From the NCBI RefSeq assembly GCF_963675065.2, contig NZ_CAXXLR010000001.1, forward strand, positions 56,550 to 120,549: a DNA stretch of 64,000 nucleotides, in the 5' to 3' direction. How positions within the stretch are numbered: the first letter of the stretch is position 1; each line of letters starts with the position of its first letter. Under the pieces are notes generated by a model, which did not search any database, was not told where the DNA came from, and saw nothing but the letters and a program-made list of their open reading frames with translations. Positions 14,889-53,173 of the stretch are shown here, piece after piece. Both the position numbers and the translations under genes were made by a program. Source of the DNA: an uncultured Draconibacterium sp. (lineage in GTDB: Bacteria; Bacteroidota; Bacteroidia; Bacteroidales; Prolixibacteraceae).

Positions 14889-14927
14889 AATGTGTGAATA
14901 GTGTAACTCTTTTTCAGAATTGTGTAA
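14889..14927 (+). promoter_or_regulatory. Repeat box #2
   Basis: AATGTGTGAA TAGTGTAA N13 TTGTGTAA; -7-like GATCTTGT at 14950. Confidence 0.8.
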
Positions 14928-15017
14928 TACTTCCTAACAGTATAGTTATGATCTTGTTGTTGTGAAAAATTATTCACTACTGTCTCGCCAGTTGCGAGAA
15001 TTTAATTTAAACAGTTT

Positions 15018-15470
15018 ATGAAAATGCAAAATATAAACCGACCGATAAAAAGTATCTTTTTGGTAGTTTTTGCGGTTATGATGATAGTTCCACTCACATC
15101 GTGTGCAAAAAAGTTCACTTTTTTAAGTTCAACTGTTGTACCGGGAGCTGATGGATATGTTAAGGTAAAAAAGGATAAGAATAAGAATTATATTGTAAAA
15201 ATAGAAGTGTCGGATTTAGCTGAAGTAGAAAGGGTTCAACCAACAAAAACAACTTATGTTGTTTGGATGGAAACCGATGAGGGTAATGCCGAAAATCTTG
15301 GACAATTAAAAAGCTCCACAAGTTTTTTATCAAAACGCCATACTGCGTCTTTGGAAACGGCATCTTCTTTTAAGCCGGTAAAAGTATTTATTACAACCGA
15401 AAATGGAACAAACGTGCAATATCCGGGCCGGCAGGTGGTACTTACCACAGAAGATTTTACTGTGAAATAG
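15018..15470 (+). CDS. Hypothetical lipoprotein
   Basis: Signal peptide with lipobox LTSC. Confidence 0.75.
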   Translation: MKMQNINRPIKSIFLVVFAVMMIVPLTSCAKKFTFLSSTVVPGADGYVKVKKDKNKNYIVKIEVSDLAEVERVQPTKTTYVVWMETDEGNAENLGQLKSSTSFLSKRHTASLETASSFKPVKVFITTENGTNVQYPGRQVVLTTEDFTVK

Positions 15471-15504
15471 ATATTTATGCCTTCGACAAACAATTAAACA
15501 ATTC

Positions 15505-15531
15505 AAAAGGCAGCCACATGGTTGCCTTTTT
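15505..15531 (+). terminator. Intrinsic terminator
   Basis: aaaaggcagcc-acat-ggttgcctttt followed by T. Confidence 0.75.
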
Positions 15532-15551
15532 GCATTTTGCAATTCAGCTAA

Positions 15552-15590
15552 AATGTGAGAATGATGTAACTCAAATCGAAAATTGTGTAA
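15552..15590 (+). promoter_or_regulatory. Repeat box #3
   Basis: AATGTGAGAA TGATGTAA N13 TTGTGTAA; GATCTTTG at 15613. Confidence 0.85.
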
Positions 15591-15657
15591 AACATTTTAT
15601 TGGGTAGAACCTGATCTTTGGGAAGTAGAATTTAGTAGCAATTTTAAATGAATTATT

Positions 15658-15836
15658 ATGTTTAACTATTCTTGTTGTTGTTGGAGTTGTTGGAGTTATC
15701 CTATGACTCATAAACAACTACATTCCGATGCAACGCACTATTAAAAATATTCTTAATGCCGTGGTTGTAATTATTCTGGTAATATGGTTGCTGAAAGAAT
15801 TTGGTGTGCTGGATAGTTTGAAGAATATCCGAATTC
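15658..15836 (+). pseudogene. Decayed copy of the Thivi_2564-family small membrane protein gene
   Basis: Nearly colinear with 21562-21747 (NNYIPMQRTIKNILNAVVVIILVIWLLK) but with a 5' frameshift and a TGG>TGA stop. Confidence 0.8.
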
Positions 15837-16044
15837 AATTTCAGTATCTTAGGCTGTAAACTACTGCTGATAGATAATTGAAATATTCAGACAATTTTTC
15901 ATGAGATATCGATATCCGTTGGATTTAAAAGATTGGGGTTTGTAAAGTGGTTGGATGATGAGCCCATCTTCAGTTTTGTGTAATACTATCTCAAATAAAA
16001 ATCCAACCATTATATGAGGAAATTTAATCACAAAAATTATTACA

Positions 16045-16263
16045 ATGAAAAAAACTTTGGGAATTATACTAATTGTAATTGGACTATTAATGATGGTGTA
16101 TACCGGATTTAACTACATCACAAAAGAGAAGGTGGTGGATTTGGGTCCCATTGAAATTAATGCCGAAGAAAGCCATACCGTTAAATGGCCGCCTATTGTT
16201 GGAGTTATTTTTATTGTTGGAGGCATCGTTGTAATTGCACTCGATAAAAAGGCTCGAATTTAG
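16045..16263 (+). CDS. Small 2-TM membrane protein (DUF3185-like)
   Basis: Two TM helices around EKVVDLGPIEI. Confidence 0.7.
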   Translation: MKKTLGIILIVIGLLMMVYTGFNYITKEKVVDLGPIEINAEESHTVKWPPIVGVIFIVGGIVVIALDKKARI

Positions 16264-16288
16264 TGCCGTGTAATAATTGAAGTTTCTA

Positions 16289-16346
16289 AATGTGTGAAGA
16301 ATGTAATTTATTATTCAGTATTAGTAGTAGTATTAGTAGTAGTAGT
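16289..16346 (+). promoter_or_regulatory. Repeat box #4, second half replaced by a (TAG)n microsatellite
   Basis: AATGTGTGAA GAATGTAA ... agtattagtagtagtattagtagtagtagta. Confidence 0.65.
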
Positions 16347-16416: not shown

Positions 16417-16602
16417 ATGAGTATCATAGAATTAGAAGGAAGCTGGGAAGAAAAGAAGGGTAAACTCAAACAGAGATTTGAAGTATTAACACACGATGAC
16501 CTTATGTTTGCTGGAGGAAATATTGAAGTACTGTATGATAAACTTCAAATAAAGCTAGGCTTAACAAAAGCAGAATTTCAAGAAATTATTGAATCACTAT
16601 AA
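16417..16602 (+). CDS. csbD: CsbD-family general stress protein
   Basis: EGSWEEKKGKLKQRFEVLTHDDL; probable ATG at 16417. Confidence 0.8.
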   Translation: MSIIELEGSWEEKKGKLKQRFEVLTHDDLMFAGGNIEVLYDKLQIKLGLTKAEFQEIIESL

Positions 16603-16631: not shown

Positions 16632-16967
16632 ATGAAAAAGGCAATTTTTTTTGTAATCGTAATGATTTTGGCAATGAGTTCGGCTATGGCATTTGCAAGT
16701 CCCAAGGATGTAAAAACAGATGCTGAAAAGTCTGCTGTTCCTGTAAAAACCGAAAACAAATTGTCGGAAGCGGAAATTACCCGTTTGACAAAACGTGTTG
16801 AAGAAATCCGGGATTTGGATAAATCAGAAATGAATACCAAAGAACGGAAAGAACTGAGAAAAGAACTGAAAGAGATTAAGAAGAATGTTAAGAATAGCGG
16901 AGGAACCGTTGTTATTAGTGGTGCTGCCCTCGTTTTAATTATTATTCTGATTATCCTTTTGGTTTGA
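16632..16967 (+). CDS. Hypothetical exported helical protein with C-terminal TM anchor
   Basis: Signal peptide, coiled coil (KRVEEIRDLDKS...RKELKEIKK), hydrophobic C-terminus. Confidence 0.75.
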   Translation: MKKAIFFVIVMILAMSSAMAFASPKDVKTDAEKSAVPVKTENKLSEAEITRLTKRVEEIRDLDKSEMNTKERKELRKELKEIKKNVKNSGGTVVISGAALVLIIILIILLV

Positions 16968-21455: not shown

Positions 21456-21494
21456 AATGTGTGAATGATGTAACTCTTTCACGAAATAATGTAA
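21456..21494 (+). promoter_or_regulatory. Repeat box #5
   Basis: AATGTGTGAA TGATGTAA N13 TAATGTAA; GACCTTTG at 21517. Confidence 0.85.
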
Positions 21495-21561
21495 TAAATT
21501 CTATGGCAGGTTGGCAGACCTTTGCAAGGAAGGATTTAGTAACAAATTAAAATTTAAAAAT

Positions 21562-21747
21562 ATGCCTATTTTAACGATCATTATTGTGATTTTGGTTGTA
21601 GGAGTTATTCTCTGGTTGGTAAATAACTACATTCCTATGCAACGCACCATTAAAAATATTCTTAATGCGGTGGTTGTAATTATTCTTGTGATTTGGCTGC
21701 TGAAGGCATTTGGTGTTTTGGACAGCTTACAAAACATAAAAATTTAG
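21562..21747 (+). CDS. Thivi_2564-family small membrane protein
   Basis: MPILTIIIVILVVGVILWLVNNYIPMQRTIKNILNAVVVI. Confidence 0.8.
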   Translation: MPILTIIIVILVVGVILWLVNNYIPMQRTIKNILNAVVVIILVIWLLKAFGVLDSLQNIKI

Positions 21748-21805: not shown

Positions 21806-21844
21806 AATGTGAGAATATTGTAATTCTTATTCAAAATTATGTAA
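21806..21844 (+). promoter_or_regulatory. Repeat box #6
   Basis: AATGTGAGAA TATTGTAA N13 TTATGTAA; CACCTTTG at 21867. Confidence 0.8.
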
Positions 21845-21933
21845 TATTCTCCGAACCCAAAGTTTTCACCTTTGCTCAGTGAAAATATTTTCACGACTGT
21901 GCCGCCAGACGCGGTAAAAATATTCAGAATAAA

Positions 21934-22755
21934 ATGATAAAAAAAAATAAAGTATTCAATGCCTTAGCGATGGTTTTGGTGGCCATATTACCGGTACTAA
22001 ACAGCGGTTGTAAAAATGAAGACACACCGCCCCTGGAAACAAGTTTTAATCTGAAAGTACAAGATGTTCTTGGAGTTACGGGTACTGCAACTTTTATTGA
22101 AACAAGCGCTACCGTGTCGACAATAACGTTAAAACTGTATGGCGCTCCTTCAGGAACTCATCCGGCTGCCTTGTACATGAATTCAGTTGTCGAGGGTGGC
22201 GAAATTGTTCAGGAGCTCAATCCTGTAGATGCTTCAGGCACCAGTTCTACCGATGTAAATTTATTAACTTACAATCAGCTGATAGCTTATGACGGCTTTA
22301 TAAAAGTGATTAAGAGCAGCAACGAACCTAACATCATTTTAGTACAGGGCGACATTGGCGGAAATGTACTGACAGGGGACAAAACGACTTTTGTTTTGGA
22401 TACAATTGGCGCATTTGGCGTTTCGGGAACTGCACTTTTCGAAAAAAGGGAAAACGGGAATACTCTGGTAACCCTTTCGCTAACCGGTGCAATTGCAGAA
22501 GAAATGTATCCGGCAACCATTAACTTGAGTTCTGTGGCCACAATTGGAGGCGGACCTGTAACAAAAACATTAAACAATGTTAATGGGACTACCGGGAAAA
22601 GCTTTACCAACATCCGAAAACTGGACGAAGGCCTGAAAATAACCTATGATAATTGGCTGGTTTATAATGGCTATATTAATATTTATCAGACAGCGGTTGA
22701 TTTTAACAATATTATTAGCCATGGAAATATAGGGTCGAACGTAAACAGCAATTGA
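21934..22755 (+). CDS. Lipoprotein with two CHRD-like repeats
   Basis: Lipobox NSGC; two internal repeats (GTATF..HPAALY..GG..Y..L..YDG / GTALF..YPATIN..GG..Y..L.YNG). Confidence 0.65.
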   Translation: MIKKNKVFNALAMVLVAILPVLNSGCKNEDTPPLETSFNLKVQDVLGVTGTATFIETSATVSTITLKLYGAPSGTHPAALYMNSVVEGGEIVQELNPVDASGTSSTDVNLLTYNQLIAYDGFIKVIKSSNEPNIILVQGDIGGNVLTGDKTTFVLDTIGAFGVSGTALFEKRENGNTLVTLSLTGAIAEEMYPATINLSSVATIGGGPVTKTLNNVNGTTGKSFTNIRKLDEGLKITYDNWLVYNGYINIYQTAVDFNNIISHGNIGSNVNSN

Positions 22756-22817: not shown

Positions 22818-24518
22818 ATGAAAAAGCAAAAAAGCACATTCAATAAAGTCGACAATTTGCATTCAAAAGCAGAAGCCTTCCTAAATAAAAAAGACAAAGG
22901 ATCTAAACTTTCTTTTTCCGAAGCCGATAATTTAAAGCTCATATATGAACTTGAAGTGCATCAGGAAGAATTGGAGGCACAAAACGAAGAATTAAGGCTG
23001 GCAAAGGAAAAAGCAGAACGAGCAGAAAAGAGATACACGGAATTATATGACTTTTCCCCTTCAGGATACCTGTCGCTTACAAAGACGGGGAAAATTACGA
23101 ATTTGAATTTTAATGTAGAACGCTTGTTGGGGAAAAAGCGCTCGTCGCTGATTAACAGTAGTTTTGGCTTTTTTATTTCTTCCGACACAAGAACCATTTA
23201 TACTAATTTTCTGGATGAAATATTCAAAACCCAATTAAAACAAAGCTGCGAACTTAAACTGGAAACTAAATCCGACGATGTGACTTATGTACTCGTCAAC
23301 GGTATTGTCAGTAATATTGATGAAAAATGTCTGATATCATTGGTTGATATAACAAAGCGTAAAATTATCGAGATCGAATTAATAAAAGCCAAAGAGAAAG
23401 CAGAAGAAGGTGAAAGGCTAAAGTCGGCGTTTCTTGCCAACATGAGTCACGAAATTCGAACACCCATGAATGGTATTATGGGGTTCTCCGAGCTTTTAAA
23501 AACGTTAAAGCTGACCGGTGAAAAACAGCAGGAGTTTATTGATATTATTCAGAAAAGCGGTACACGTATGCTCAATATTATAAACGATATTATTAACATT
23601 TCAAAAATAGAATCGCAACAAATTGAAGTTCTGGTTTCCGACACAAACATAAACGAACAGGTAGAGTACATTTATCATTTTTTCAAGCTCGAAGCAGATC
23701 AAAAAAAATTGAATTTTTCCTTCAAAAATGGACTGAATTCAAAAAATGCTTTAATCCGTACAGACCGGGAAAAAGTGTATGCAATTCTTACCAACCTGGT
23801 TAAAAATGCCATAAAGTTTACCCAAACAGGCTCCATTGAATTGGGTTACGAATTGAAGAGTGAACGCATAGAATTTTATGTAAAAGATAGTGGACCCGGT
23901 ATTCCGGATGAACAGAAAAAAATCATTTTTGAACGCTTCAGACAAGGCCACAAATCCTTAACATCTAACGTTGAAGGAGCCGGCCTTGGATTATCTATCT
24001 CAAAAGCATACGTCGAAATGTTGGGTGGCGAAATTTGGGCAGAGAATAATATTGGACAAGGTTCAACATTCCGTTTTACCCTTCCTCATCTTAATGGGAT
24101 TAAAGAAAAAGAACCACATCAAATAGTTGCTGAGGAAGAAATCAGTTCAATAAGAAAGATAAAAATACTGGTTGTTGAAGACGATAAAACTTCCCAACGA
24201 TTATTAGGTTTTATGATTGAGCATTTGACAGGCGAAATAATCCAGGTTACTACTGGTGAGGAGGCTGTTGAGATCTGTCGTGAAAATCCCGATATTGATT
24301 TGGTGCTTATGGATATACAGATGCCCGGAATAAATGGCCTTGAAGCTACACGCCAAATTCGCGAGTTTAACAAAGAGATTGTTATCATTGCGCAAACAGC
24401 GTTTGCATTAAACGGCGACAGGGGAAAGTCAATTGAAGCAGGATGTAACGATTACATTTCAAAACCGATTAACCGGGCCAATTTAAATAATATGATAAAC
24501 AATTATTTTCGCAATTAG
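22818..24518 (+). CDS. Hybrid sensor kinase (PAS-HisKA-HATPase-receiver)
   Basis: FLANMSHEIRTPMN H-box, NAIKFT, DSGPGI, GAGLGL, receiver VLMDIQMP. Confidence 0.92.
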   Translation: MKKQKSTFNKVDNLHSKAEAFLNKKDKGSKLSFSEADNLKLIYELEVHQEELEAQNEELRLAKEKAERAEKRYTELYDFSPSGYLSLTKTGKITNLNFNVERLLGKKRSSLINSSFGFFISSDTRTIYTNFLDEIFKTQLKQSCELKLETKSDDVTYVLVNGIVSNIDEKCLISLVDITKRKIIEIELIKAKEKAEEGERLKSAFLANMSHEIRTPMNGIMGFSELLKTLKLTGEKQQEFIDIIQKSGTRMLNIINDIINISKIESQQIEVLVSDTNINEQVEYIYHFFKLEADQKKLNFSFKNGLNSKNALIRTDREKVYAILTNLVKNAIKFTQTGSIELGYELKSERIEFYVKDSGPGIPDEQKKIIFERFRQGHKSLTSNVEGAGLGLSISKAYVEMLGGEIWAENNIGQGSTFRFTLPHLNGIKEKEPHQIVAEEEISSIRKIKILVVEDDKTSQRLLGFMIEHLTGEIIQVTTGEEAVEICRENPDIDLVLMDIQMPGINGLEATRQIREFNKEIVIIAQTAFALNGDRGKSIEAGCNDYISKPINRANLNNMINNYFRN

Positions 24519-24530: not shown

Positions 24531-24569
24531 AATGTGAGAATAATGTAACTAAATCCTAAAGTTGTGTAA
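24531..24569 (+). promoter_or_regulatory. Repeat box #7
   Basis: AATGTGAGAA TAATGTAA N13 TTGTGTAA; canonical TACCTTTG at 24592. Confidence 0.85.
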
Positions 24570-24639
24570 CAATTTCAGAGCGAATGAGAAATACCTTTGA
24601 TAGTGCATTAATTTATATGCACAGTTAATACTGAAAATT

Positions 24640-25101
24640 ATGAAAAAAATATTTTTTACACTGGCTGTTGTACTATTTATAGCTGGTTCAAATTTCACTG
24701 GGTGCAATACTCCTTCGCAAAAACTTGAAAATGCTGAGGAAGATGTAACCGAAGCAAAAAAGGCGGTTTTAGATGCGCAGAGTGATCTAAACCAGGCTCA
24801 TCAGGATTCGATTACAGCATACCAGCAATTCAAAATTGAATATGAAAACAGAATTATTGCAAACCAAAAAAGTATCGACGAGCTAAAAGTAAAAATTGTA
24901 AGTGCAAACAAGGAGAATAAAGCATTGTACGAAACAAAACTGGCCGAACTGCAGAAAAGAAACAACGATTTGAAAGTTAAACTGGTTAACTACAAAGCAG
25001 ATGAAACGGATAACTGGCAAACATTCAAGCTGGAGTTTAAACGGGACATGGATGAACTGGGAAAAGCATTTTCCGATTTTACGGTGAGTAATACAAAATA
25101 A
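24640..25101 (+). CDS. Coiled-coil lipoprotein (stress-associated family)
   Basis: Lipobox FTGC; C-terminal WQTFKLEFKRDMDELG. Confidence 0.75.
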   Translation: MKKIFFTLAVVLFIAGSNFTGCNTPSQKLENAEEDVTEAKKAVLDAQSDLNQAHQDSITAYQQFKIEYENRIIANQKSIDELKVKIVSANKENKALYETKLAELQKRNNDLKVKLVNYKADETDNWQTFKLEFKRDMDELGKAFSDFTVSNTK

Positions 25102-25701: not shown

Positions 25702-26505
25702 ATGAAAAAAATTATTATCTCAATATTTATCGCATCTATTCTAACCGGGTGTATTTTAAACAAAGTAACTGGTCGTAAACAATTGAGTCTTGTTCCGGAA
25801 TCGGAATTGCAAGTGATGGCCGTCAGCCAATACAGCACATTCCTGTCAGAAAATAAGGTATTAAATCCGCGCAACAACAAAAGCGCAGCAATGGTTGACC
25901 AGGTTGGTGCACGTATTTCAAATGCTATTACACAATATTACAATAGCCAGGGGAAAAAATCAGTAACTGAAGGCTACAAATGGGAATTTAACACCATAGA
26001 AAGCAAAGAAGCCAATGCCTGGTGCATGCCCGGCGGGAAAGTGGTTGTATATACCGGCTTATTGTCAATAACCCAAAACGAAACAGCGCTGGCCATTGTT
26101 GTCGGGCACGAAATTGCGCATGCCATTGCCAAGCACGGCAGCGAACGTATGAGCCAGGGAATGATGCAACAGCTGGGTGGAATGGCCTTAGAGGTTGCTT
26201 TATCGCAAAAACCGCAGGATACTCAAAATTTGTTTATGCAGGCTTATGGCATTGGAAGCACAGTTGGCGCCGTGTTACCGTGGTCGAGACAGCAGGAAAC
26301 AGAAGCCGACCAATACGGGTTAATTTTTGCTGCAATGGCTGGCTACGATCCCCGTGAAGCAATACCTTTCTGGCAACGAATGTCGAATGCAGGTGGGGCA
26401 AAACCACCAGAATTTTTGAGCACTCACCCATCGGATGAGACAAGGATGAGAAAGCTCAATCAATTTATGCCTGAAGCCATGAAATATTATAAACAGGGCA
26501 ATTGA
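25702..26505 (+). CDS. M48 family metalloprotease lipoprotein
   Basis: Lipobox LTGC; NAWCMPGGK, HEIAH, E.EADQYG, FLSTHP. Confidence 0.9.
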   Translation: MKKIIISIFIASILTGCILNKVTGRKQLSLVPESELQVMAVSQYSTFLSENKVLNPRNNKSAAMVDQVGARISNAITQYYNSQGKKSVTEGYKWEFNTIESKEANAWCMPGGKVVVYTGLLSITQNETALAIVVGHEIAHAIAKHGSERMSQGMMQQLGGMALEVALSQKPQDTQNLFMQAYGIGSTVGAVLPWSRQQETEADQYGLIFAAMAGYDPREAIPFWQRMSNAGGAKPPEFLSTHPSDETRMRKLNQFMPEAMKYYKQGN

Positions 26506-26580: not shown

Positions 26581-26619
26581 AAAGTGTGAATGATGTAAAT
26601 CTTTCACGAAATTGTGTAA
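26581..26619 (+). promoter_or_regulatory. Repeat box #8
   Basis: AAAGTGTGAA TGATGTAA N13 TTGTGTAA; GATCTTTA at 26642. Confidence 0.85.
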
Positions 26620-26689
26620 TACCTTTTACCCGGGGAAGGCTGATCTTTACAAGTGTTAAATATTAAAACAATTACTTAAAATAATTATT

Positions 26690-27004
26690 ATGAGTTCAGG
26701 AAAAGTTGTACTAGGATTACTGGCAGGCGCTGTCGCCGGTGCATTTGCAGGTATTTTATTAGCCCCTGCAAAAGGTTCGAAAACCAGGAAAAGGATTGCA
26801 AGAAAAGGAGAAGATTACTACGATTCGTTAAAGGAAAAATTTGATGAATTGCTTGATGCCGTTTCCGACAAATTTGAAGAGGTAAAAGAAGATGTTACCG
26901 AATATGCTGAAAAAATAAAAGAAGATGTTTCGGATTTTGCTGAAAAAAAGATGTCTAAAACACCCGAAGAAACAGAAAAAAACGCTAAAGCAACGGAAGT
27001 TTAA
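26690..27004 (+). CDS. YtxH-domain protein
   Basis: GLLAGAVAGAFAGILLAP.KG..TR. Confidence 0.9.
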   Translation: MSSGKVVLGLLAGAVAGAFAGILLAPAKGSKTRKRIARKGEDYYDSLKEKFDELLDAVSDKFEEVKEDVTEYAEKIKEDVSDFAEKKMSKTPEETEKNAKATEV

Positions 27005-28373: not shown

Positions 28374-28412
28374 CATGTGTGAATGATGTAACTCTTTCCG
28401 AAAGTTATGTAA
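28374..28412 (+). promoter_or_regulatory. Repeat box #9
   Basis: CATGTGTGAA TGATGTAA N13 TTATGTAA; CAACTTTC at 28435. Confidence 0.8.
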
Positions 28413-28472
28413 TACTTTCTACTTTGAATATCCTCAACTTTCGCACATTAAATATTCACCAAAAAGAACAAA

Positions 28473-29291
28473 ATGAAAAAATCAATTCACACGCTTACTT
28501 TATTAATCCTGGTTGCTGGATTATTATTGACGTCATGCGTATCCAATAAGAAATTTATGGCTTCAGAAGCCCGGGGAGTTAAACTGCAAAAAGAGAATGC
28601 ACTAGCACTCAATAAACTAAACGAAAGCAACATGCTTCTGATGGATGTAGAGAATGAAAAAGAAATTATGCAACAGAAGAACGAAATGATGCAAAAGGAA
28701 TATGCGACGATTCAGAAAAATCTGATGATGCGTTCTTCAGAATCAAAAATGACCATTGCTGAACAGGCCCGGCGACTAAACGATCTTCAGAATATTATTG
28801 ATGCCCAGACTGAAATAACTACCCGGTTAAAAAATTCGATAGGCAATGCATTGAAGAATTATAAAACCGACGAATTGAATGTTTACATGCTGAATGGAAA
28901 CGTACATGTATCGCTGGCAGAAAAGCTGCTCTTTAAATCGGGAAGCGATGTGGTGGATTCAAAAGGAAAAGCAGCACTTAAATCGCTTGCCACTGTTTTA
29001 AACAGTTCTGAAGATTTCACCGTTGCCATTGTAGGCCATACCGATGATGTTCCGATTAAAACAAAAATATTCGAAGATAATTGGGATCTTAGCACTGCAA
29101 GAGCAACATCTATCGTTCGGATTCTTACCATTGATAATGGTTTTGATTCATCGCGAATCACTGCTTCAGGAAAAAGTGAGTTTCATCCGATAAGTGCAAA
29201 TTCATCTACCGAAGGACGCGCTGATAATCGAAGAACAGAAGTTATTCTTTCGCCTGATTTACAGGAAATATATAAGCTTTTGTATCAATAA
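28473..29291 (+). CDS. OmpA/MotB-family lipoprotein with coiled coil
   Basis: Lipobox LTSC; GHTDDVP, NWDLSTARA, NRRTE. Confidence 0.88.
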   Translation: MKKSIHTLTLLILVAGLLLTSCVSNKKFMASEARGVKLQKENALALNKLNESNMLLMDVENEKEIMQQKNEMMQKEYATIQKNLMMRSSESKMTIAEQARRLNDLQNIIDAQTEITTRLKNSIGNALKNYKTDELNVYMLNGNVHVSLAEKLLFKSGSDVVDSKGKAALKSLATVLNSSEDFTVAIVGHTDDVPIKTKIFEDNWDLSTARATSIVRILTIDNGFDSSRITASGKSEFHPISANSSTEGRADNRRTEVILSPDLQEIYKLLYQ

Positions 29292-29527: not shown

Positions 29528-29566
29528 AATGTGTGAATGATGTAAATTTTTTCAAGAATAGCGTAA
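29528..29566 (+). promoter_or_regulatory. Repeat box #10 (upstream of CsbD-like and AraC genes)
   Basis: AATGTGTGAA TGATGTAA N13 TAGCGTAA; TAATTTTA at 29589. Confidence 0.8.
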
Positions 29567-29634
29567 CATTTTAAAAATTCGAATGGTTTAATTTTATATT
29601 GGATTACTGGCATCTGATTAAAAAGAATAAAAAA

Positions 29635-29817
29635 ATGTACAACAATGCGATGGGTTACTGGAACGGAAAAAAAGAAAAAATTAAACAAAAATATCCGCTT
29701 ATTACCGATGAAGACTTGAATTTTCGCGAAGGAAAGGAAGTAGAAATGATAGAGATGCTGGGGTACAAACTTGGAATGTCGATTGAAGAAATGCGTTGTA
29801 TAATTGCCGACTTGTAA
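29635..29817 (+). CDS. CsbD-like general stress protein
   Basis: GYWNGKKEKIKQKYPLITDEDL..EGKE.EM...LGYKLG; probable ATG at 29635. Confidence 0.8.
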   Translation: MYNNAMGYWNGKKEKIKQKYPLITDEDLNFREGKEVEMIEMLGYKLGMSIEEMRCIIADL

Positions 29818-29884: not shown

Positions 29885-30442
29885 ATGATACTGAAAATTA
29901 AAAATATGGAAAGCAGCCGGTGTAAAACATTGGTAAAGCAGGAAATGACCAGGCTTGGCTTTCATGAAATTTCAGTAGAACTGGGCGAAGTAGAATTTGA
30001 AGGCGATATCTCAAATGAAGAGTTACAGTTATTCGATTCGGCCCTTAAAAATTTGGGCCTTGAAATACTGGTGGATAAAAGGAGCCGACTTATTGCAAAA
30101 ATTAAAGATGCTGTTGATCAGTTGGTCTACCTCACCGACGATCTCCCAAGGCCAAACTATTCCGAGTACATCAGCCAAAAGGTAAATCTTAGTTACAGTT
30201 CGCTTAGCAATGTCTTTTCAGCAATGGAAAACACCACCATTGAAAAGTATATTATTGCACAACGAATTGAACGGGTGAAAGAGCTGCTTATCTATTCCGA
30301 TCTTAGCCTCAGCGACATTGCTTTCAAAATGCATTTTAGTAGTGTGGCTCATTTATCCAACCAGTTTAAGAAAGTTACCGGTTTAACCCCTTCCTTTTTC
30401 AGGAAAAACAGAATTAACAATAACGAAACGAATGATAATTGA
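29885..30442 (+). CDS. AraC-family regulator with HMA-like N-terminus (SxxC variant)
   Basis: KIKNMESSRC N-terminus; LSLSDIAFKMHFSSVAHLSNQFKKVTGLTP AraC HTH. Confidence 0.9.
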   Translation: MILKIKNMESSRCKTLVKQEMTRLGFHEISVELGEVEFEGDISNEELQLFDSALKNLGLEILVDKRSRLIAKIKDAVDQLVYLTDDLPRPNYSEYISQKVNLSYSSLSNVFSAMENTTIEKYIIAQRIERVKELLIYSDLSLSDIAFKMHFSSVAHLSNQFKKVTGLTPSFFRKNRINNNETNDN

Positions 30443-36366: not shown

Positions 36367-37839
36367 ATGCAGGTAGCCATAAACAGAAAGGACATAAAAT
36401 TTATGCCTGATTCATCGAGGGTAATTGCACGGTTTCTATACACCGGCGATGAACGGGCGCTAAATACCATTCGATCGGTACTTGGCATAACAGAAGTATC
36501 AGCATTAGAGGCGCTAAATCCCATTCTAAGGGACTACTCCATGCGTCATAGAAATATCTCTAAAATATTTGAAAAACACTTTAACAAAATTTCTCATCTG
36601 TTAAAACAGTTGAAAATTGATTCTGACACTCTCAGCGTATTTCAAAAAATACTGATTGGCTCCTACTTTACCATGGAATATTCAATTGAATCGGCAGCCT
36701 TTTTTAATCCGTCGATTATGGAGCATCCCGATCAGTCGGAGACGGGCACGGAAGAAAAAAGGGTTATTCTAAGTTTCAGGGCGACCGGAGAAGGACATAT
36801 TTCTTCTATTGTTTTCAGAACAGGAGTCCTGGATAAAAACAACAATCTTTCGATTGAACCGGTGGGCAAAATGCTGGAAGAAGCAAAGCATATCAGGAGG
36901 TATGTATATGAAAAAGATGCCTTCAAAAGCAAACTGAACGAGATGAAGGATTTTCACGCCATTATTCCTCCTGGTCTAATTCTGGATAAGTTGAACGATA
37001 CATTTACGTATGGAGAACTGCGCGATTGTATAAAAGAAGGTAGAAAATCATTGCATCTTGCAGCAGATAAAGAAATTCTGTTTAACCAGATTATCTGGCT
37101 GGCCTCGTCACATTACGAACTTGATTTCTCATTAGATACCAACATTTCGGAACGGGTAATTTTTCCGGTTTCGACAAATGAAAAAAATGGAATTGAAGAT
37201 GCACGTTTCGTAAAATTTGCTGATGATGACGGCAAAATGAATTATTATGCCACCTACACCGCATACGACGGCACCACCATTTTACCTAAAATGCTTGACA
37301 CAAGAGATTTTTACCATTTCAGGGTGTTGCCTCTTCATGGCGAGATTGCCCAAAACAAAGGAATGGCACTTTTCCCGCGCAAAGTGAACGGTAAATATGC
37401 CATGCTGTGCCGTTTGGATGGTTTCAACAATTACATCGCTTTTTCTGATAATATTTCAATTTGGCGCGAAGCAAAATTGTTGCAGCAGCCAAAATTTCCG
37501 TGGGAATTTATTCAAATCGGAAATGGAGGCTCTCCTATTGAAACACCGGAAGGTTGGCTGGTAATTACACACGGAGTAGGACCGATGCGCGAATATGTTC
37601 TCGGTGCATCGCTGTTCGATCTTCAAAATCCGGAAAAAGAGATTGGCCGGTTGAAATCGCCACTGCTAATACCTAATACCGAAGAGAGAGAAGGATACGT
37701 GCCCAATGTAGTTTATTCCTGCGGATCGATGATCAATAATGATGAGTTGATAATTCCATACGCCATGTCGGATTATGCATCTACTTATGCCACCGTTAAC
37801 CTTAGAGAACTTTTGAATGAGTTGAAGAATTCGAAATAA
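36367..37839 (+). CDS. Glycoside hydrolase family 130-like protein (copy 2)
   Basis: Colinear paralog of 2282-3751 with long identical peptide stretches. Confidence 0.85.
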   Translation: MQVAINRKDIKFMPDSSRVIARFLYTGDERALNTIRSVLGITEVSALEALNPILRDYSMRHRNISKIFEKHFNKISHLLKQLKIDSDTLSVFQKILIGSYFTMEYSIESAAFFNPSIMEHPDQSETGTEEKRVILSFRATGEGHISSIVFRTGVLDKNNNLSIEPVGKMLEEAKHIRRYVYEKDAFKSKLNEMKDFHAIIPPGLILDKLNDTFTYGELRDCIKEGRKSLHLAADKEILFNQIIWLASSHYELDFSLDTNISERVIFPVSTNEKNGIEDARFVKFADDDGKMNYYATYTAYDGTTILPKMLDTRDFYHFRVLPLHGEIAQNKGMALFPRKVNGKYAMLCRLDGFNNYIAFSDNISIWREAKLLQQPKFPWEFIQIGNGGSPIETPEGWLVITHGVGPMREYVLGASLFDLQNPEKEIGRLKSPLLIPNTEEREGYVPNVVYSCGSMINNDELIIPYAMSDYASTYATVNLRELLNELKNSK

Positions 37840-37859: not shown

Positions 37860-37898
37860 AATGTGTGAATGATGTAACTATTATCAAGAATTGTGTAA
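37860..37898 (+). promoter_or_regulatory. Repeat box #13
   Basis: AATGTGTGAA TGATGTAA N13 TTGTGTAA; GATATTTA at 37921. Confidence 0.88.
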
Positions 37899-37986
37899 CA
37901 TAACATTCATTAAAAAGCCTGATATTTAAAAATCTAGACAAATAGTTAATAAGCGGGTATTTGTTTAAATCCTTAAATTAAATGCT

Positions 37987-39546
37987 ATGGCTAATTCAAC
38001 TACCAATCAAAACTCAGGAAAAAGAAAATCAACACCTTCTGCAAAGGAAGCTTTAATTACCTCTGAAATTCGTTACCGCCGCTTATTTGAATCGGCAAAA
38101 GACGGAATTTTAATTCTTGATGCCGAAACGGGGATGATTGTTGACGTGAATCCGTTTTTAATAGAGTTACTGGGTTATTCGAAAGAAAGTTTTATTGAAA
38201 AAACAATATGGGAAATAGGGTTCTTAAAGGATATTATTGACAATAAAGAAAAATTTCTGGAATTACAGCAAAAGAAATATGTCCGTTATGAAGATTTACC
38301 TCTGGAAACAGCAGACGGGCGAAGAATTCATGTAGAATTTGTGAGCAATGTATACTTATCAGACAGTCAAAAGGTTATCCAATGCAATATACGCGATATA
38401 ACAGAGCGCAAGCTATCAGAAGCGACAATTATCAATGGAAAAAATATGCTGCGTACATTGATAGATAACCTTCCCGCAATGATTTATATTAAAGATATTG
38501 AGTGCAGGAAAGTTATTGCCAATATAACTGATATCAAAAATATTGGATATCAAAACGAAGAAGAGATCCTTGGAAAAACAGACATTGAACTTTTCCCGGG
38601 GGACATTGGCCAACGAGGTTATGCCGATGATCAAAAGGTAATTAACTTAGGAATAGCAATCAATAACAGGGTTGAAGATTTTTACAATAGCGAAGGGAAA
38701 AGAAGTTGGATATCCACTACTAAAATACCTTTAAGAAATAACGAAGGTGAAATTACCGGACTTGTTGGGATCGGCTATGATATTACTGAAAGTAAAAAGA
38801 TTGAGGAAGAATTGACTTATGCCAAAGAAAAGGCAGAAGAAAGCGACCGTCTGAAATCAGCTTTTTTGGCCAATATGAGCCATGAAATCCGCACACCAAT
38901 GAATGGTATTCTTGGGTTTACAAATCTTTTGCAAGACCCTGAGTTAACCGGCGAAGAACAGCAAGAATATATTGGAATTATTCAAAAAAGTGGCGATCGA
39001 ATGTTAAATACGGTGAATGATATTATCAATATCTCCAAAATTGAAGCCGGGCAAACGACAGTTTTTGTTTCTGAATTTAATATTGACGAACAACTCAAAA
39101 CTATTTATTCCTTTTTTAAACCGGAAACCGATAAAAAAGGCATCCAATTTATTTTAAAAAATTCATTGACAGAACAGGACGATGTGATTGAATCTGACAA
39201 GGAGAAACTAGATTCAATTCTCACAAATCTGGTTAAAAATGCTATTAAATTTTGTGATAAGGGCAAAATTGAATTTGGCTGTTTTAAAAAAGAAAGAGGA
39301 CTGCAATTTTATGTTAAGGATTCAGGCATTGGTATACCCCTCAACAGACAGCAAGCCATTTTCGAACGTTTTATTCAGGCCGATATTGATGATAAGAATG
39401 CACTGCAAGGATCGGGGTTGGGTTTAGCAATTGCAAAAGCATATACAAAAATGCTGGGTGGAAAAATTTGGGTTGAAAGCGCAGAAGGCCAGGGGTCGAC
39501 TTTCTTTTTTAATATTGCTTACAAATCTAATAAAGTGCACAGGTAA
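37987..39546 (+). CDS. PAS-PAS sensor histidine kinase without receiver
   Basis: Two PAS/PAC domains, SHEIRTPMN H-box, NAIKFC, GSGLGL. Confidence 0.9.
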   Translation: MANSTTNQNSGKRKSTPSAKEALITSEIRYRRLFESAKDGILILDAETGMIVDVNPFLIELLGYSKESFIEKTIWEIGFLKDIIDNKEKFLELQQKKYVRYEDLPLETADGRRIHVEFVSNVYLSDSQKVIQCNIRDITERKLSEATIINGKNMLRTLIDNLPAMIYIKDIECRKVIANITDIKNIGYQNEEEILGKTDIELFPGDIGQRGYADDQKVINLGIAINNRVEDFYNSEGKRSWISTTKIPLRNNEGEITGLVGIGYDITESKKIEEELTYAKEKAEESDRLKSAFLANMSHEIRTPMNGILGFTNLLQDPELTGEEQQEYIGIIQKSGDRMLNTVNDIINISKIEAGQTTVFVSEFNIDEQLKTIYSFFKPETDKKGIQFILKNSLTEQDDVIESDKEKLDSILTNLVKNAIKFCDKGKIEFGCFKKERGLQFYVKDSGIGIPLNRQQAIFERFIQADIDDKNALQGSGLGLAIAKAYTKMLGGKIWVESAEGQGSTFFFNIAYKSNKVHR

Positions 39547-39682: not shown

Positions 39683-39721
39683 AATGTGTGAATGATGTAA
39701 ATATTATTCAGAATTATGCAA
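39683..39721 (+). promoter_or_regulatory. Repeat box #14 (heads a ~8 kb gene run)
   Basis: AATGTGTGAA TGATGTAA N13 TTATGCAA; TAATTTTA at 39744. Confidence 0.8.
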
Positions 39722-39795
39722 CACTTCCTGCGCACTTTCAACGTAATTTTATAAAAATAATTAAAGCTCTTTGTAGTGTTAATAAAAACTATGAG

Positions 39796-39966
39796 ATGAA
39801 AAATTCACTTTATATCGTCGCGGGGCTACTTGCACTTCTTTGGGCTATAATAACATTTGGGTTCTACTCATTCCGCTATTTTGATTTACTTCTTCTTGTG
39901 GCAGGTTTTATGGTACTTCTCCAAATTCTTTTTAATAAAAAGTCACCCCGGAATCATAATAAATAA
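39796..39966 (+). CDS. Diverged lmo0937-like small membrane protein
   Basis: MKNSLYIVAGLLALLWAIITFGF...LLLVAGFMVLLQIL; probable ATG at 39796. Confidence 0.65.
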   Translation: MKNSLYIVAGLLALLWAIITFGFYSFRYFDLLLLVAGFMVLLQILFNKKSPRNHNK

Positions 39967-39982: not shown

Positions 39983-40483
39983 ATGAAAAAACAGATTTTA
40001 ACTGTCGTTTTACTGATGACAGCAAGTGTAATTTTTGCGCAGGGTCCGATTAATAAAGGCGAAACCCAAGTAAATTTCGGAGTTGGGCTTTCTTCATGGG
40101 GAGTTCCCGTTTATGTGGGATTTGATTATGGAGTTCATCCCGATATCACGCTGGGAGCAGAACTATCGTATCGCTCCTATAACAACAATTGGAACCAAAA
40201 TAAATACAATCACTCCATTATTGGTTTTTTGGGCAATGCCAATTATCACTTCAACAATGTGTTGAATATACCTTCTCCCTGGGACTTTTACGCAGGGCTA
40301 AATCTTGGCTTTTACAACTGGAACTCACCTAACGATTACGATGGCTCACATAATTCTGGAGTTGGACTGGGCGCTCAGATAGGAGGCCGGTACTATTTCA
40401 GTAATAAAGTGGGTATAAACCTGGAATTTGGTGGCGGAAATGCTTTTAGTAACGGAAAATTTGGATTAACAATTAAAATATAA
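39983..40483 (+). CDS. Outer-membrane beta-barrel protein
   Basis: Signal peptide; alternating strands; GAQIGGRYYF. Confidence 0.8.
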   Translation: MKKQILTVVLLMTASVIFAQGPINKGETQVNFGVGLSSWGVPVYVGFDYGVHPDITLGAELSYRSYNNNWNQNKYNHSIIGFLGNANYHFNNVLNIPSPWDFYAGLNLGFYNWNSPNDYDGSHNSGVGLGAQIGGRYYFSNKVGINLEFGGGNAFSNGKFGLTIKI

Positions 40484-50519: not shown

Positions 50520-50552
50520 GGTTCACCTCTTCCGTTTTCTGTTTTGTTCTAC

Positions 50553-50822
50553 TTAAATATCTACCGGCATTGAAATGGTAATTGGCCTTAATACGGTATG
50601 TTTTTTTTGCATTTCAGCATTTGCCGGATCGTCAATGATTGACTGTAATTTTTCCATGTCCGTAACTTCAATTACCAATGCAATCGAATTGGGATCATTA
50701 GCATCTCTAAACGTTTTGAAACTGGTTATTGCGGGTGCAAAAACCCTTTTCCTGTCATCATGTCCTTTAAGCCATGTGTCAAAATCTCCTACCTTATGTC
50801 GTGCTACAATTGTTGTCATCAT
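50553..50822 (-). CDS. Small dimeric alpha/beta-barrel (ABM-like) protein
   Basis: VARHKVGDFDTW..FRD.NDPN. Confidence 0.65.
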   Translation of the reverse strand: MMTTIVARHKVGDFDTWLKGHDDRKRVFAPAITSFKTFRDANDPNSIALVIEVTDMEKLQSIIDDPANAEMQKKHTVLRPITISMPVDI

Positions 50823-50938
50823 TTTGTTCTTTTAAGATGCTTATGCCTACTCTATTCGGTTTTCGGCTAACTCGATTTAAAGCTCTTCTTTCAACTATTT
50901 TATGCGATAGATGAATACTACTCTGACTAAGTTAGGCC

Positions 50939-51052
50939 TTAATCGCTTTTCCTGGCTTTTTTGGCTGCTTTAGCTGCCCGTTTTTCTTTCAAGCTCATAA
51001 CGGCTTCCTTCTTCTCGTTCTTCCGTTCTTTTCCTTCCTTACTTTTTGCCAT
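50939..51052 (-). CDS. 37-aa Lys-rich small protein
   Basis: MAKSKEGKERKNEKKEAVMSLKEKRAAKAAKKARKSD*; not in the ORF track. Confidence 0.75.
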   Translation of the reverse strand: MAKSKEGKERKNEKKEAVMSLKEKRAAKAAKKARKSD

Positions 51053-51076
51053 GATATTTATTATTAGATATTTAAA

Positions 51077-51427
51077 CTATAATATATTTCCTTCGTACCC
51101 ACTTTTAATCACTGTTGAAATCATCTTGAATCGACCATTCGCCTTAACTGTATTGGAACTATGAGCCGGAATAATTATGCCTTGTCCCGTTTGAATTATG
51201 GTTGACTGATCATCAATCACTACTTCGGCTGTACCTTCAATTATCTGTATAAAGGTGTCAAACGGAGATATCTTCTCGGCCAGAGCCTCGCCGGTATCAA
51301 TGGCCATAACAACTATGTTTCCGGTTGTTTTCCGGATAATTGTTTTACTTACCACCGAATTGGGAACATACTGAATGATTTCGATGAGGATGCGAATTTT
51401 CGATTTTTCTAATTCCTTCATTTGCAT
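51077..51427 (-). CDS. Cupin-domain protein
   Basis: SPFDTFIQIIEG.AE...IIIPAH. Confidence 0.8.
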   Translation of the reverse strand: MQMKELEKSKIRILIEIIQYVPNSVVSKTIIRKTTGNIVVMAIDTGEALAEKISPFDTFIQIIEGTAEVVIDDQSTIIQTGQGIIIPAHSSNTVKANGRFKMISTVIKSGYEGNIL

Positions 51428-51482
51428 GAGTCTTCAAATAAGATAATCTCCTCAAAGTTACATCCGCTCAATTTTGAAAGTG

Positions 51483-51521
51483 TTACACAATCGATGTTAT
51501 AATTTACATCATTCACACATT
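51483..51521 (-). promoter_or_regulatory. Repeat box #15
   Basis: Reverse complement AATGTGTGAA TGATGTAA N13 TTGTGTAA; AAACTTTG at 51460-51453. Confidence 0.88.
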
Positions 51522-51524
51522 TTG

Positions 51525-53021
51525 CTACTTGATGCCAATTTGGCGCAACCCGTAAACGGTTCTGAAATGATACCCATAAACAGTGTATGTAAGGGCGTCA
51601 ACCATTAATTTTGGCTTATTGAAAAGGGTCCAGATGACAAATTTCCAATATTCAGTTCTCCCCTTGTCGAGGAAACCAATTACATAAACCGATTTTAAAA
51701 ATGCGAACAGCAGCGAAAATTTTATTTTGGATTTTCCTTTTGTCAAACGATTGTAGTTAAGTAATAACCGCCTGACCCTTTTGTAATAGGGTTTTACCGA
51801 GTAAATATTTTTGATTATTCTTTTATAACCTTCCTGAAGCTCGTTGGAATCCATTTTAGGAATAAAGTTCATTGATGAATCGGTATTATTTCCTGTAGCT
51901 TCCACGGTTAACCGGTTTTCTGCATTTAACTGATTGTAAAGTTTGGTGTTTTTGGGCGCGTTTAATAATCCAACCATAGCCGAAACAATTCCACTTTGTT
52001 GAATGAAATCGATTTGACGTTGAAAAACTGACGGCGTGTCGCTGTCGAAACCAACAATAAAACCACCTGACACCTGAATTCCAGCTTGTTGTATCGTTTT
52101 AACGCTTTGAATAAGATCCCTGTTTTTATTCTGAACTTTATTGCACGATTGAAGAGATACTTCATCGGGAGTTTCAATGCCAATAAAAGCAGCATTAAAA
52201 CCTGCATCAATTAACTGCGACATGAGCTCTTTATCATCGGCCAGATTTATCGAACTCTGGATACTAAAATTAAAAGGGTACTTATGGCTTTGCATCCATT
52301 TTTTCATTGCCGGAAGCAAACTCTTTTTTATTTCTTTGATGTTTCCAATAAAATTATCATCGACAATTGAAACCGGCCCACGCCATTTAATGGTATCGTA
52401 CAAAACATCCAGTTCGTTAATAATTTGGGGGGTGCTTTTCATCCTCATTTTATGCCCCAGCAATGACGTAATTTCACAAAAGCTACAGTTATATGGACAT
52501 CCACGTGTTACCTGGATATTCATGTTAGCATAGTCTTTTGCTGATAGCAAATGAAAATCGGGAGCTGGTGTTTGGGTTAAATCTGCATATTTATCTGTAG
52601 CATAAACCCGTTGGAGTTGTCCGGTATTGATATCGGCCAGAAAAAGGGGCATGGTGATTTCTGCCTCATTCAAAATAAAGTGATCTACATCCGGATAATT
52701 GGGATATTCCTGGGTAAAAAGCGGACCACCTGCAACTATTTTTTTGCCCCATTTTTTGCTTTCCGCAATTACCTTGGTTACCGATTCCTTTTGAATATAC
52801 ATGGCGCTGATAAAAACATAATCAGCCCACTGAATATCGCTTGTCTGAAGCGGTGAGATATTTAAATCCACCAGTTTTTTTTGCCATGTTTCAGGCAGCA
52901 TTGCCGACACCGTAATTAAACCAAGTGGCGGAACTGCAGCTTTTTTCGAAATAAATTTCAGGGCATGGGTAAAACTCCAGAACGAATCCGGACACTTTGG
53001 ATAAACCAATAATACTTTCAT
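51525..53021 (-). CDS. B12-binding radical SAM protein (DUF4070, HpnP-like architecture)
   Basis: PPLGLITV, AGGP, RGCPYNCSFC (CxxxCxxC), IGIET, GGFIVGFD. Confidence 0.88.
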   Translation of the reverse strand: MKVLLVYPKCPDSFWSFTHALKFISKKAAVPPLGLITVSAMLPETWQKKLVDLNISPLQTSDIQWADYVFISAMYIQKESVTKVIAESKKWGKKIVAGGPLFTQEYPNYPDVDHFILNEAEITMPLFLADINTGQLQRVYATDKYADLTQTPAPDFHLLSAKDYANMNIQVTRGCPYNCSFCEITSLLGHKMRMKSTPQIINELDVLYDTIKWRGPVSIVDDNFIGNIKEIKKSLLPAMKKWMQSHKYPFNFSIQSSINLADDKELMSQLIDAGFNAAFIGIETPDEVSLQSCNKVQNKNRDLIQSVKTIQQAGIQVSGGFIVGFDSDTPSVFQRQIDFIQQSGIVSAMVGLLNAPKNTKLYNQLNAENRLTVEATGNNTDSSMNFIPKMDSNELQEGYKRIIKNIYSVKPYYKRVRRLLLNYNRLTKGKSKIKFSLLFAFLKSVYVIGFLDKGRTEYWKFVIWTLFNKPKLMVDALTYTVYGYHFRTVYGLRQIGIK

Positions 53022-53134
53022 TTTCTCTGATTTTCCGTAAACTCCTAACTATAATCTCTTCCCCTTTTTTGAGGAACTCAATTGCCGGGGCTGCTCATTT
53101 AAGGTAAATTTCGTAAGATTGAACGTGTAATGTG

Positions 53135-53173
53135 TTACACAATTCTGATGATTATTTACATCATTCACACATC
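53135..53173 (-). promoter_or_regulatory. Repeat box #16 (overlaps the AraC stop codon)
   Basis: Reverse complement GATGTGTGAA TGATGTAA N13 TTGTGTAA; GAAATTTA at 53112-53105. Confidence 0.85.

Follow-up and report, generated by a model that had tools for sequence, protein, structure and literature searches.

At the I1-I2 sites of araBAD and at the Pm promoter, the regulators AraC and XylS act from two tandem sites, a strong distal one and a weaker proximal one, which are direct repeats 21 base pairs (bp) apart; the proximal site abuts or overlaps the −35 equivalent of the promoter, and the DNA is read by an AraC-type domain with two helix-turn-helix (HTH) motifs. Here we describe a similar arrangement in an element of about 70 bp that recurs in 64,000 nucleotides (nt) of DNA from an uncultured Draconibacterium sp. 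(contig NZ_CAXXLR010000001.1, positions 56,550 to 120,549 of the forward strand; the whole of this stretch is referred to as the window), mostly within a gene cluster of 39 kb. On the basis of sequence comparison, we consider it probable that this element constitutes the activator half of sigma-A promoters, that it is most likely read by a small, hitherto uncharacterised AraC-type protein with an HMA-like N-terminal domain (HMA-AraC) encoded twice in the same cluster, and that it drives stress and envelope genes. Unlike AraC, the putative sensor would be a 62-residue HMA-like ferredoxin fold and not a cupin/dimerisation domain. Also unlike araBAD, the promoters are of the −7/−33 type of Bacteroidota and show no sign of a looping O2-type site, and the target, in contrast to the catabolic operons of araBAD and Pm, would be a multi-operon stress regulon. 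Tandem-site activation by AraC proteins belongs to a known class, and it is the sensor domain, the promoter context and the phylum-wide stress regulon that appear to be new.

The DNA-binding fold is shared with MarA, SoxS and Rob, which recognise an asymmetric site of about 20 bp by two HTH motifs one helical turn apart and which likewise control stress regulons of many scattered promoters; the protein position that was found to covary with the element is the equivalent of MarA Arg46/Arg96. MarA and SoxS, however, each act on one site as a monomer, with control exerted through the amount of protein, whereas the present system would combine two tandem sites with an N-terminal domain, and the consensus of the element is unrelated to the marbox. 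To our knowledge, Bacteroidota lack RpoS, sigma-B and EcfG, and the coordination of their general stress and envelope response is, as far as we know, largely unknown. The regulons of sigma-B in Bacillus, RpoS in Proteobacteria and EcfG in Alphaproteobacteria share with the genes described here their content of CsbD, YtxH, Usp, OmpA-like and envelope proteins, and likewise carry one promoter signature on dozens of unrelated genes; they use an alternative sigma factor, whereas the promoters here join a housekeeping −7 box to a putative upstream activator site, and the likeness is a functional analogy only. Within the phylum, the promoter signature PM2 of B. thetaiotaomicron has been linked to stress and stationary phase (PMC7366714), but it is a near-palindromic −30/−10 motif ascribed to extracytoplasmic function (ECF) sigma factors (PMC12596196), while the element presented here would lie at about −75 to −35, 5' of a canonical −7 box. 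Both PM2 and the motifs SM4-6 of F. psychrophilum were considered as prior descriptions and rejected as different motifs. The original prediction, made from the letters of this DNA alone, knew of no description of the motif; neither the element nor an HMA-AraC stress regulon was found in full-text literature searched also for the literal sequence, a coverage outside which most subscription journals lie.

A search of the window with the box 1 pattern AATGTGWGAATDATGTAA returned 16 matches with 0-1 mismatch each, 13 on the plus strand and three on the minus strand, the latter at the high coordinates 32160, 51521 and 53173; the chance expectation is 0.66 even at three or fewer mismatches, and 16 matches were reached in none of 100 shuffles. 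With the first A of AATGTG taken as offset 0, box 2 (TTRTGTAA) stands at offset 31 in 14 of the 16 copies, the intact ones, so that boxes 1 and 2 together span 39 bases and the TGTAA cores are 21 bp apart, while the copies at 6531 and 16289 carry box 1 without box 2. In all 14 intact copies a −7-like octamer begins at offset 61, 30 bp after the start of box 2, with A62, T65 and T66 present every time and T67 in 12 of them. A position weight matrix built from other genomes assigned 38-55 bits to the 14 intact copies, 12 bits at most to the rest of the window and up to 10.5 bits to shuffled sequence. Every copy faces a co-oriented open reading frame (ORF), including those of the divergent pair 32160(−)/32324(+). 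The 16 copies at exactly these coordinates, the spacing of the boxes and of the octamer in the 14 intact ones (with the examples at 24592, 15613, 21517 and 21867) and the constant position 5' of co-oriented genes had all been part of the original prediction, and were reproduced by pattern search and alignment. The 40 bases preceding each copy show no mutual similarity, so that the copies are not parts of a longer repeat.

Boxes 1 and 2 alone (GTGWGAATDATGTAA-N13-TTRTGTAA) were then used to scan other genomes, one per species, and the element was found in at least 120 genome stretches belonging to four Bacteroidota orders. Among the matches listed are, in Bacteroidales, Prolixibacteraceae, Draconibacterium, Maribellus, Mariniphaga, Paludibacter, Odoribacter and Lentimicrobiaceae; in Chitinophagales, Chitinophagaceae, Saprospiraceae, Ferruginibacter and Segetibacter; in Cytophagales, Emticicia, Arcicella and Flammeovirgaceae; and in Flavobacteriales, Yeosuana, Lutibacter and Robiginitalea. 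Cultured relatives with the element include Maribellus, Draconibacterium, Gaoshiqia hydrogeniformans and Ancylomarina salipaludis. The sole motif contig among them with a label outside Bacteroidota (JBAZOY010000146.1, locus L069, labelled as a metagenome-assembled genome of Syntrophales) is probably mis-binned, since it is only 3.7 kb long. The 132 sites recovered from the listed stretches were examined in the columns outside the search pattern, and conservation was observed at offsets 0-2 (AAT), 18-22 (CTnTT), 29-30 (AA) and 39-43 (CAyTT), as well as at offsets 61-69 (yACCTTTGy), where A62 occurs in 92% of the sites, T65 and T66 in 98%, T67 in 86% and G68 in 67%. Both in these 132 sites and in the 14 of the window, the sequence rAATnrTGTAAC is found twice, at offsets 8-18 and 29-39.

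The −7 box of Bacteroidota is TAnnTTTG (PMC7366714, PMC9723704), and in F. psychrophilum it occupies positions −12 to −5 (PMC9723704). The yACCTTTG at offsets 61-68 corresponds to this sigma-A box, and the published position places the predicted transcription start at offsets 73-75. The first ATG-initiated ORF has its modal start 105-110 bp after the start of the element (84-136 bp in about 80% of the sites), which leaves a leader of 30-35 nt, as is usual in the phylum. The TTTG of the −33 element is absent from the 132 sites, offsets 37-43 being AACAyTT, and its position is held by box 2, whose end lies 21 bp from the −7 box, that is, at −33 by the published geometry when the start site is taken as predicted. 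From the base-pair-fixed distance to the −7 box and the spacing of the start codons, the element is identified as the 5' portion of a sigma-A promoter, from about −75 to −35 relative to the predicted start. The sequencing runs that contain the source organism are of DNA only, with flat depth, and a search with a related locus yielded sparse metatranscriptome contigs only; one of these, covering the CsbD mRNA of locus L115, ends 4-6 nt inside the predicted start, a weak hint that is compatible with this start and not decisive.

Three other explanations bear on this promoter geometry. Many copies in a small region could be a dispersed repeat without regulatory role, comparable to miniature inverted-repeat transposable elements or repetitive extragenic palindromes, but with unrelated flanks, an orientation always toward a gene, a −7 box offset and an ATG distance fixed across four orders, and conserved families of downstream genes, this explanation is effectively refuted. 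The TGTAAC boxes might instead be the −35-like element of an alternative, ECF-type sigma promoter, as ECF sigma factors typically use −35 elements resembling GTAAC/GGAAC. ECF-like non-canonical stress promoters are also reported in B. thetaiotaomicron (PMC7366714, PMC12596196). We regard this as very improbable, given that the downstream box is the housekeeping yAnnTTTG −7 and not a CGT-type −10, that the spacer between TGTAAC and this box is 21 bp, that TGTAAC occurs twice, 21 bp apart, with a third conserved block in front of it, and that genes for sigma or anti-sigma factors are absent from the cluster. When RpoE and the sigma-A of the window were used as queries, no more than 6 of 200 loci contained an ECF sigma gene, and the window cluster contained none; a housekeeping-type sigma-70 gene (59060-59926) lies outside it. 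Finally, HMA-AraC could bind the element as a repressor, an anti-activator or a dual regulator and not as a class II activator. About one site in eight carries GTGAA-N6-TTCAC at the predicted start, which might be a second, repressive site for the same protein; against such a role, the element lies 5' of the −7 box and not over it, at about −75 to −35, in place of the −33 element, and at a base-pair-fixed distance to the −7 box in the 132 sites, as is typical of activators that touch the polymerase. This makes repression a rather unlikely account, and activation from the element is the reading followed below.

The sites of the window, with matrix scores and predicted targets, and the two regulator genes are as follows.

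6531-6549, plus strand: isolated box 1 outside the cluster, lacking both box 2 and a −7 box at the fixed offset, 302 bp 5' of a dehydrogenase gene; probably a relic or non-functional.
14889-14957, plus strand: intact element, boxes 1 and 2 at 14889-14927, −7 box GATCTTGT at 14950, 51.0 bits; predicted target, lipoprotein gene 15018-15470.
15552-15620, plus strand: intact element, −7 box GATCTTTG at 15613, 47.9 bits; predicted targets, small membrane-protein ORFs 15728-15859 and 16045-16263.
16289-16307, plus strand: box 1 only, with the (TAG)n microsatellite TAGTAGTAGTATTAGTAGTAGTAG at 16322-16345 in the place of box 2; followed by a CsbD-like gene (16417-16602), a gene of 111 codons (16632-16967), DUF6600 and M1 peptidase genes.
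21456-21524, plus strand: intact element, −7 box GACCTTTG at 21517, 47.3 bits; predicted target, small membrane-protein gene 21562-21747.
21806-21874, plus strand: intact element, −7 box CACCTTTG at 21867, 38.2 bits; predicted targets, genes for a 273-residue protein (21934-22755) and a hybrid histidine kinase-receiver (22818-24518).
24531-24599, plus strand: intact element, −7 box TACCTTTG at 24592, 49.1 bits; predicted targets, coiled-coil lipoprotein gene 24640-25101 and possibly M48 peptidase gene 25702-26505.
26581-26649, plus strand: intact element, −7 box GATCTTTA, 53.4 bits; predicted targets, YtxH gene 26690-27004 and three genes up to 28159.
28374-28442, plus strand: intact element, −7 box CAACTTTC, 55.5 bits; predicted target, OmpA-family gene 28473-29291.
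29528-29596, plus strand: intact element with a weaker box 2, TAGCGTAA, 44.4 bits; predicted targets, CsbD-like gene 29635-29817 and the gene of HMA-AraC B.
29885-30442, plus strand: gene of HMA-AraC B, 185 residues with NMESSRC (first Cys lost), 3' of the 29528 element.
32092-32160, minus strand: intact element, one arm of the divergent pair, 48.4 bits; predicted targets, Gly-zipper OmpA gene 31149-31847 and outer-membrane barrel gene 30503-31120.
32324-32392, plus strand: intact element, other arm of the divergent pair, 44.4 bits, with a long leader of about 370 nt; followed by genes for a CheB-CheR-PAS protein (32771-35677), a PAS protein and GH130 (36367-37839).
37860-37928, plus strand: intact element, 53.6 bits; predicted target, PAS histidine kinase gene 37987-39546.
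39683-39751, plus strand: intact element, box 2 TTATGCAA, 48.4 bits; predicted targets, DUF5670-like small membrane-protein gene at about 39796-39966 and outer-membrane protein gene 39983-40483; it may further drive the run of genes from Band7 to GH100 that ends at 47794.
51453-51521, minus strand: intact element, −7 box TAACTTTG, 51.9 bits; predicted target, cupin gene 51077-51427.
53105-53173, minus strand: intact element; predicted target, B12-binding radical SAM gene 51525-53021.
53165-53725, minus strand: gene of HMA-AraC A, 186 residues with NMVCIRC, the proposed activator.

The small membrane-protein genes 15728-15859 and 21562-21747 are duplicates whose 36 common residues are nearly identical; in the copy that would be driven by the 15552 element, the N-terminal half lacks an ATG in frame, and this gene may be truncated. 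The (TAG)n tract at 16322-16345 in the promoter of the CsbD-like gene may be a length-variable disruption of the element.

The AraC-type domain of the two window proteins is recognised by Pfam HTH_18 (E=7.5e-16 and 5.5e-19), and their nearest homologues are found in Draconibacterium, Maribellus and Prolixibacteraceae. Proteins A and B share 48% identity and differ in the HTH1 recognition helix, while that of HTH2, SSVAHLSNQFKK, is identical in both and almost invariant across the phylum, in parallel with the near-invariance of TGTAAC. In an AlphaFold2 model (mean predicted local distance difference test score 86.7, about 90 for residues 1-62), residues 1-62 form an N-terminal domain of beta-alpha-beta-beta-alpha-beta topology, followed by a linker helix and by an AraC domain of seven helices. 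Foldseek aligned the C-terminal domain with AraT, YesN, GadX, AdpA, MarA, SoxS and Rob (E 1e-3 to 1e-5 for the last three) and the N-terminal domain with TTHA1718, Atox1, Atx1 and CopZ (probability 0.96-0.99, template modelling score 0.55-0.67). The predicted N-domain has the same fold as Atox1, Atx1 and CopZ, and paralogue A retains the M-x-C-x-x-C, at the junction of loop and helix 1, as do 10 of 28 orthologues; in contrast to those proteins, the domain is fused to a transcription factor, and in most orthologues (17 of 28), as well as in paralogue B, the first Cys is replaced by Ser (S-x-x-C), the second, Cys13, being invariant. At 50% identity (E up to 1e-3) there are 1461 clusters in the N-domain family, most full-length members having about 175-190 residues.

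Genomic linkage singles out this protein among DNA-binding families. When all 840 ORFs from the 120 listed motif loci were clustered, with no family chosen beforehand, the top family was that of the PAS kinases (34 of the 120 loci), a large paralogous family, and HMA-AraC came second (25 loci), followed by OmpA, cupin, ice-binding-like proteins and Mla components; no DNA-binding family other than HMA-AraC was enriched among these ORFs. As a reverse test, 80 metagenome loci were retrieved through the HMA-AraC protein alone (63-83% identity). The strict box 1 pattern is present in 47 of them, and a tolerant matrix detected the element in 74, including all 22 loci of at least 8 kb, with zero hits in five shuffles of 419 kb. 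The layout of the genes points in the same direction. In several genomes the element stands about 95 bp 5' of the AraC start, a layout of the autoregulation type, and in the window the 29528 element precedes the pair formed by CsbD and AraC B, whereas HMA-AraC A has an ordinary −7 box and no element upstream. Moreover, the first nine bases of the 53173 element are the last two codons and the stop of HMA-AraC A (GAT GTG TGA), and an element over the AraC stop codon in identical register is found in 24 of 78 metagenome loci; as the C-terminal (N/D)-V-stop is encoded by (A/G)ATGTGTGA, the protein end and the DNA site constrain each other.

In some lineages TATAAC replaces TGTAAC, often in both repeats, and this change was compared with the protein after the sites had been re-ascertained without the two tested columns (offsets 14 and 35). 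In loci whose HMA-AraC has Asn159, 73 of 86 G/A sites have G at offset 14, and 68 of 87 have it at offset 35, against 26 and 28 of 56, respectively, in loci with Ala, Ser, Thr or Lys159 (Fisher tests, p=1.8e-6 for offset 14 and p=9e-4 for offset 35 per site; p=3e-6 per locus). An all-against-all analysis of protein-DNA mutual information was dropped, being dominated by high-entropy columns and shared ancestry, and was replaced by a ranking of protein columns for this one DNA change, in which residue 159 was the best predictor among 98 variable columns (p=5.8e-7; next 2.8e-5). Residue 159 falls on the position of MarA Arg46, both by the L-x-X-x-F pattern of the recognition helix and by BLASTP alignment; the latter pairs HTH2 of the query with HTH1 of MarA, and was therefore used only for the position within the recognition helix. 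The equivalent of Arg46 in helix 6 of MarA is presumably Arg96. In helix 3 of MarA, the bases are contacted by Trp42, Gln45 and Arg46 (PMC3315485). These data are supportive, although not proof, of a role of HTH2 of HMA-AraC in reading TGTAAC of both repeats.

Taken together, the −7 box, the linkage, the reverse test, the gene layout and the covariation lend computational support to the earlier proposal of an activator-type element with class II-like geometry read by HMA-AraC. Several points weigh against this reading. Genomic linkage alone does not distinguish a regulator from a conserved member of its regulon; the TTTG at −33 is weakly conserved across Bacteroidota generally, so that its absence is weak evidence for activator dependence; and the covariation is incomplete, with G still at 46-50% in the variant lineages, its hypothesis arose once the data had been viewed, and shared ancestry links many other protein columns to the variation of the sites. 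In addition, Pfam HMA is not called in the N-domain at normal thresholds (best E=0.084) and the sequence similarity is marginal, for which reason a fold search was used; the label HMA, taken from the original prediction, thus does not hold at those thresholds and is borne out by the predicted fold. Moreover, with the first Cys missing from paralogue B and from 17 of 28 orthologues, a classical HMA metal site cannot be the general switch.

The linkage and the covariation have to be weighed as well against the possibility that the element does serve as an activator or operator site but has a reader encoded elsewhere, HMA-AraC being only a conserved regulon member. Cupin, OmpA and CsbD genes are likewise enriched at motif loci, which shows that the linkage is not specific to a regulator, and the covariation is confounded by shared ancestry. 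However, no second DNA-binding family is enriched in the 200 loci, asymmetric direct-repeat units of about 19 bp set 21 bp apart fit a two-HTH AraC domain, and the best-covarying residue lies at a base-contact position of the HTH2 recognition helix. We consider a reader encoded elsewhere unlikely, and HMA-AraC remains our preferred candidate.

If HMA-AraC does read the element, offsets 0-19 (AATGTGTGAATrATGTAAC) would form the full site for one two-HTH AraC domain, whose HTH motifs would sit on TGTGAA and, 9 bp downstream, on TGTAAC. Offsets 21-40 would be a second, equally oriented site, shifted downstream by 21 bp or two helical turns, which retains only the TGTAAC half and the AA at offsets 29-30. 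In the proposed mechanism the two sites are taken as offsets of about 2-19 and about 23-40, respectively. The proximal TGTAAC ends at offset 39, in what would be the usual place of the −33 TTTG. HMA-AraC A, made from its ordinary promoter, might then act as a constitutive sensor resident on the strong distal site, and a signal received through the HMA-like N-domain could lead to cooperative or dimeric filling of the weak proximal site, from where the protein would abut the −33 position and contact or recruit the RNA polymerase holoenzyme. Paralogue B, produced from an element-driven operon, might feed forward and so reinforce or modulate the response. The signal might be the oxidation of thiols or a soft metal, in either case at Cys13 alone or together with Cys10, and the output would comprise CsbD, YtxH, OmpA-type and barrel outer-membrane proteins, DUF5670, cupin, peptidases, PAS kinases and sugar-modifying enzymes. 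We speculate, as a tentative extension that we hold to be considerably less secure than the reading of the element itself, that HMA-AraC could govern, as master regulator, the general stress response of the whole phylum Bacteroidota, with an HMA-like thiol/metal switch at Cys13 gating the cooperative filling of the proximal site. It would then be a functional equivalent of RpoS, sigma-B and EcfG in which an activator works with the housekeeping sigma factor, in place of an alternative sigma.

The content of the cluster agrees with such an output. Pfam scans identified two CsbD-like proteins and YtxH, which are classic general-stress proteins of the Bacillus sigma-B regulon; among envelope and membrane proteins, a holin-X-like protein, two OmpA-family proteins, two outer-membrane barrels, small DUF5670-like membrane proteins and Band7; the peptidases M48 and M1, and DUF6600; as signalling proteins, the hybrid histidine kinase, the CheB-CheR-PAS protein and a PAS kinase; the carbohydrate enzymes GH130, PIG-L, GT4, a GH100-like protein and a 748-residue GT4; and, further, SDR, VIT1, a DnaJ-like protein, cupin, the B12-binding radical SAM protein and the two short AraC proteins. 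A metal-resistance or metal-homeostasis cluster was considered and rejected, as the scans showed stress and envelope genes instead. The first downstream proteins of 130 cross-genome sites were scanned together, and those of the matches listed include Ice_binding-like (9), CsbD (7), OmpA, YtxH, DUF5670 and cupin (4 each), and MlaE, B12-radical SAM, DUF6600 and AraC (3 each). These families are largely the same as those of the window, and the predicted regulon is conserved. A family with a His-rich N-terminus, P-type metal ATPase-like by eye, was observed in 9 of the 120 motif loci listed (for example L054, 2107-4530) and a Usp-like family in 8, a hint of lineage-specific extensions of the regulon, metal transport included.

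The original prediction had described a self-contained regulon covering most of the 39-kb cluster. Fourteen intact elements do stand upstream of genes; however, some cluster genes begin 300-770 bp past the preceding gene without an element of their own, and for this reason a coverage of most of the cluster depends on assumed operons. A self-contained regulon is not supported by an analysis that covered, for this genome, the window; the element is phylum-wide and occurs in other genomes at separate places on one contig, as in CAWAHF010000004.1, with matches at 104-112 kb and 256-264 kb. In Bacteroidales, Chitinophagales, Cytophagales and Flavobacteriales alike, CsbD, YtxH, OmpA, Mla and related genes are marked by an element of about 70 bp that hardly varies and that points to a single family of small regulators, and a scan with the matrix could predict the regulon in any Bacteroidota genome. 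With N159 as the predicted specificity residue, there is one protein and one DNA site to examine, and the element might serve as a stress-inducible promoter part in this phylum, for which few genetic tools exist.

Some of the leaders carry features of their own. The palindrome GTGAA-N6-TTCAC was observed in 20 of 163 sites examined, beginning in 18 of these 20 at offset 73, the predicted start; in the window it occurs at 14962-14977 (14889 element) and 21879-21894 (21806 element) and nowhere else, and in other loci at 18 sites, for example in L022, L067 and L097. It could form a stabilising hairpin at the 5' end of the mRNA, or be a second protein site sharing TGTGAA with box 1. A second hairpin, yCCGC-CAGnn-GCGGr, lies 3' of the palindrome at 14983-14998 and 21900-21915 of the window and in L050, L057, L065, L072 and L090, with compensatory changes among its copies (CTCGC/GCGAG, CCCGC/GCGGG and TCCGC/GCGGA), and the leaders fold with z-scores of −1.7 to −2.9. 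At the gathering score, Rfam detected only tRNA in the window, and no family for the element or the leaders.

At the right-hand edge of the cluster, a tRNA gene (54298-54371, minus strand) lies just upstream of HMA-AraC A, and beyond it a fused FeoA-FeoB gene (55693-58155, plus strand). Two GH130-family genes, 2282-3751 and 36367-37839, the second of them in the cluster, encode proteins with 84% identity; the first lies 30 kb from the cluster copy, near the isolated box 1 at 6531.

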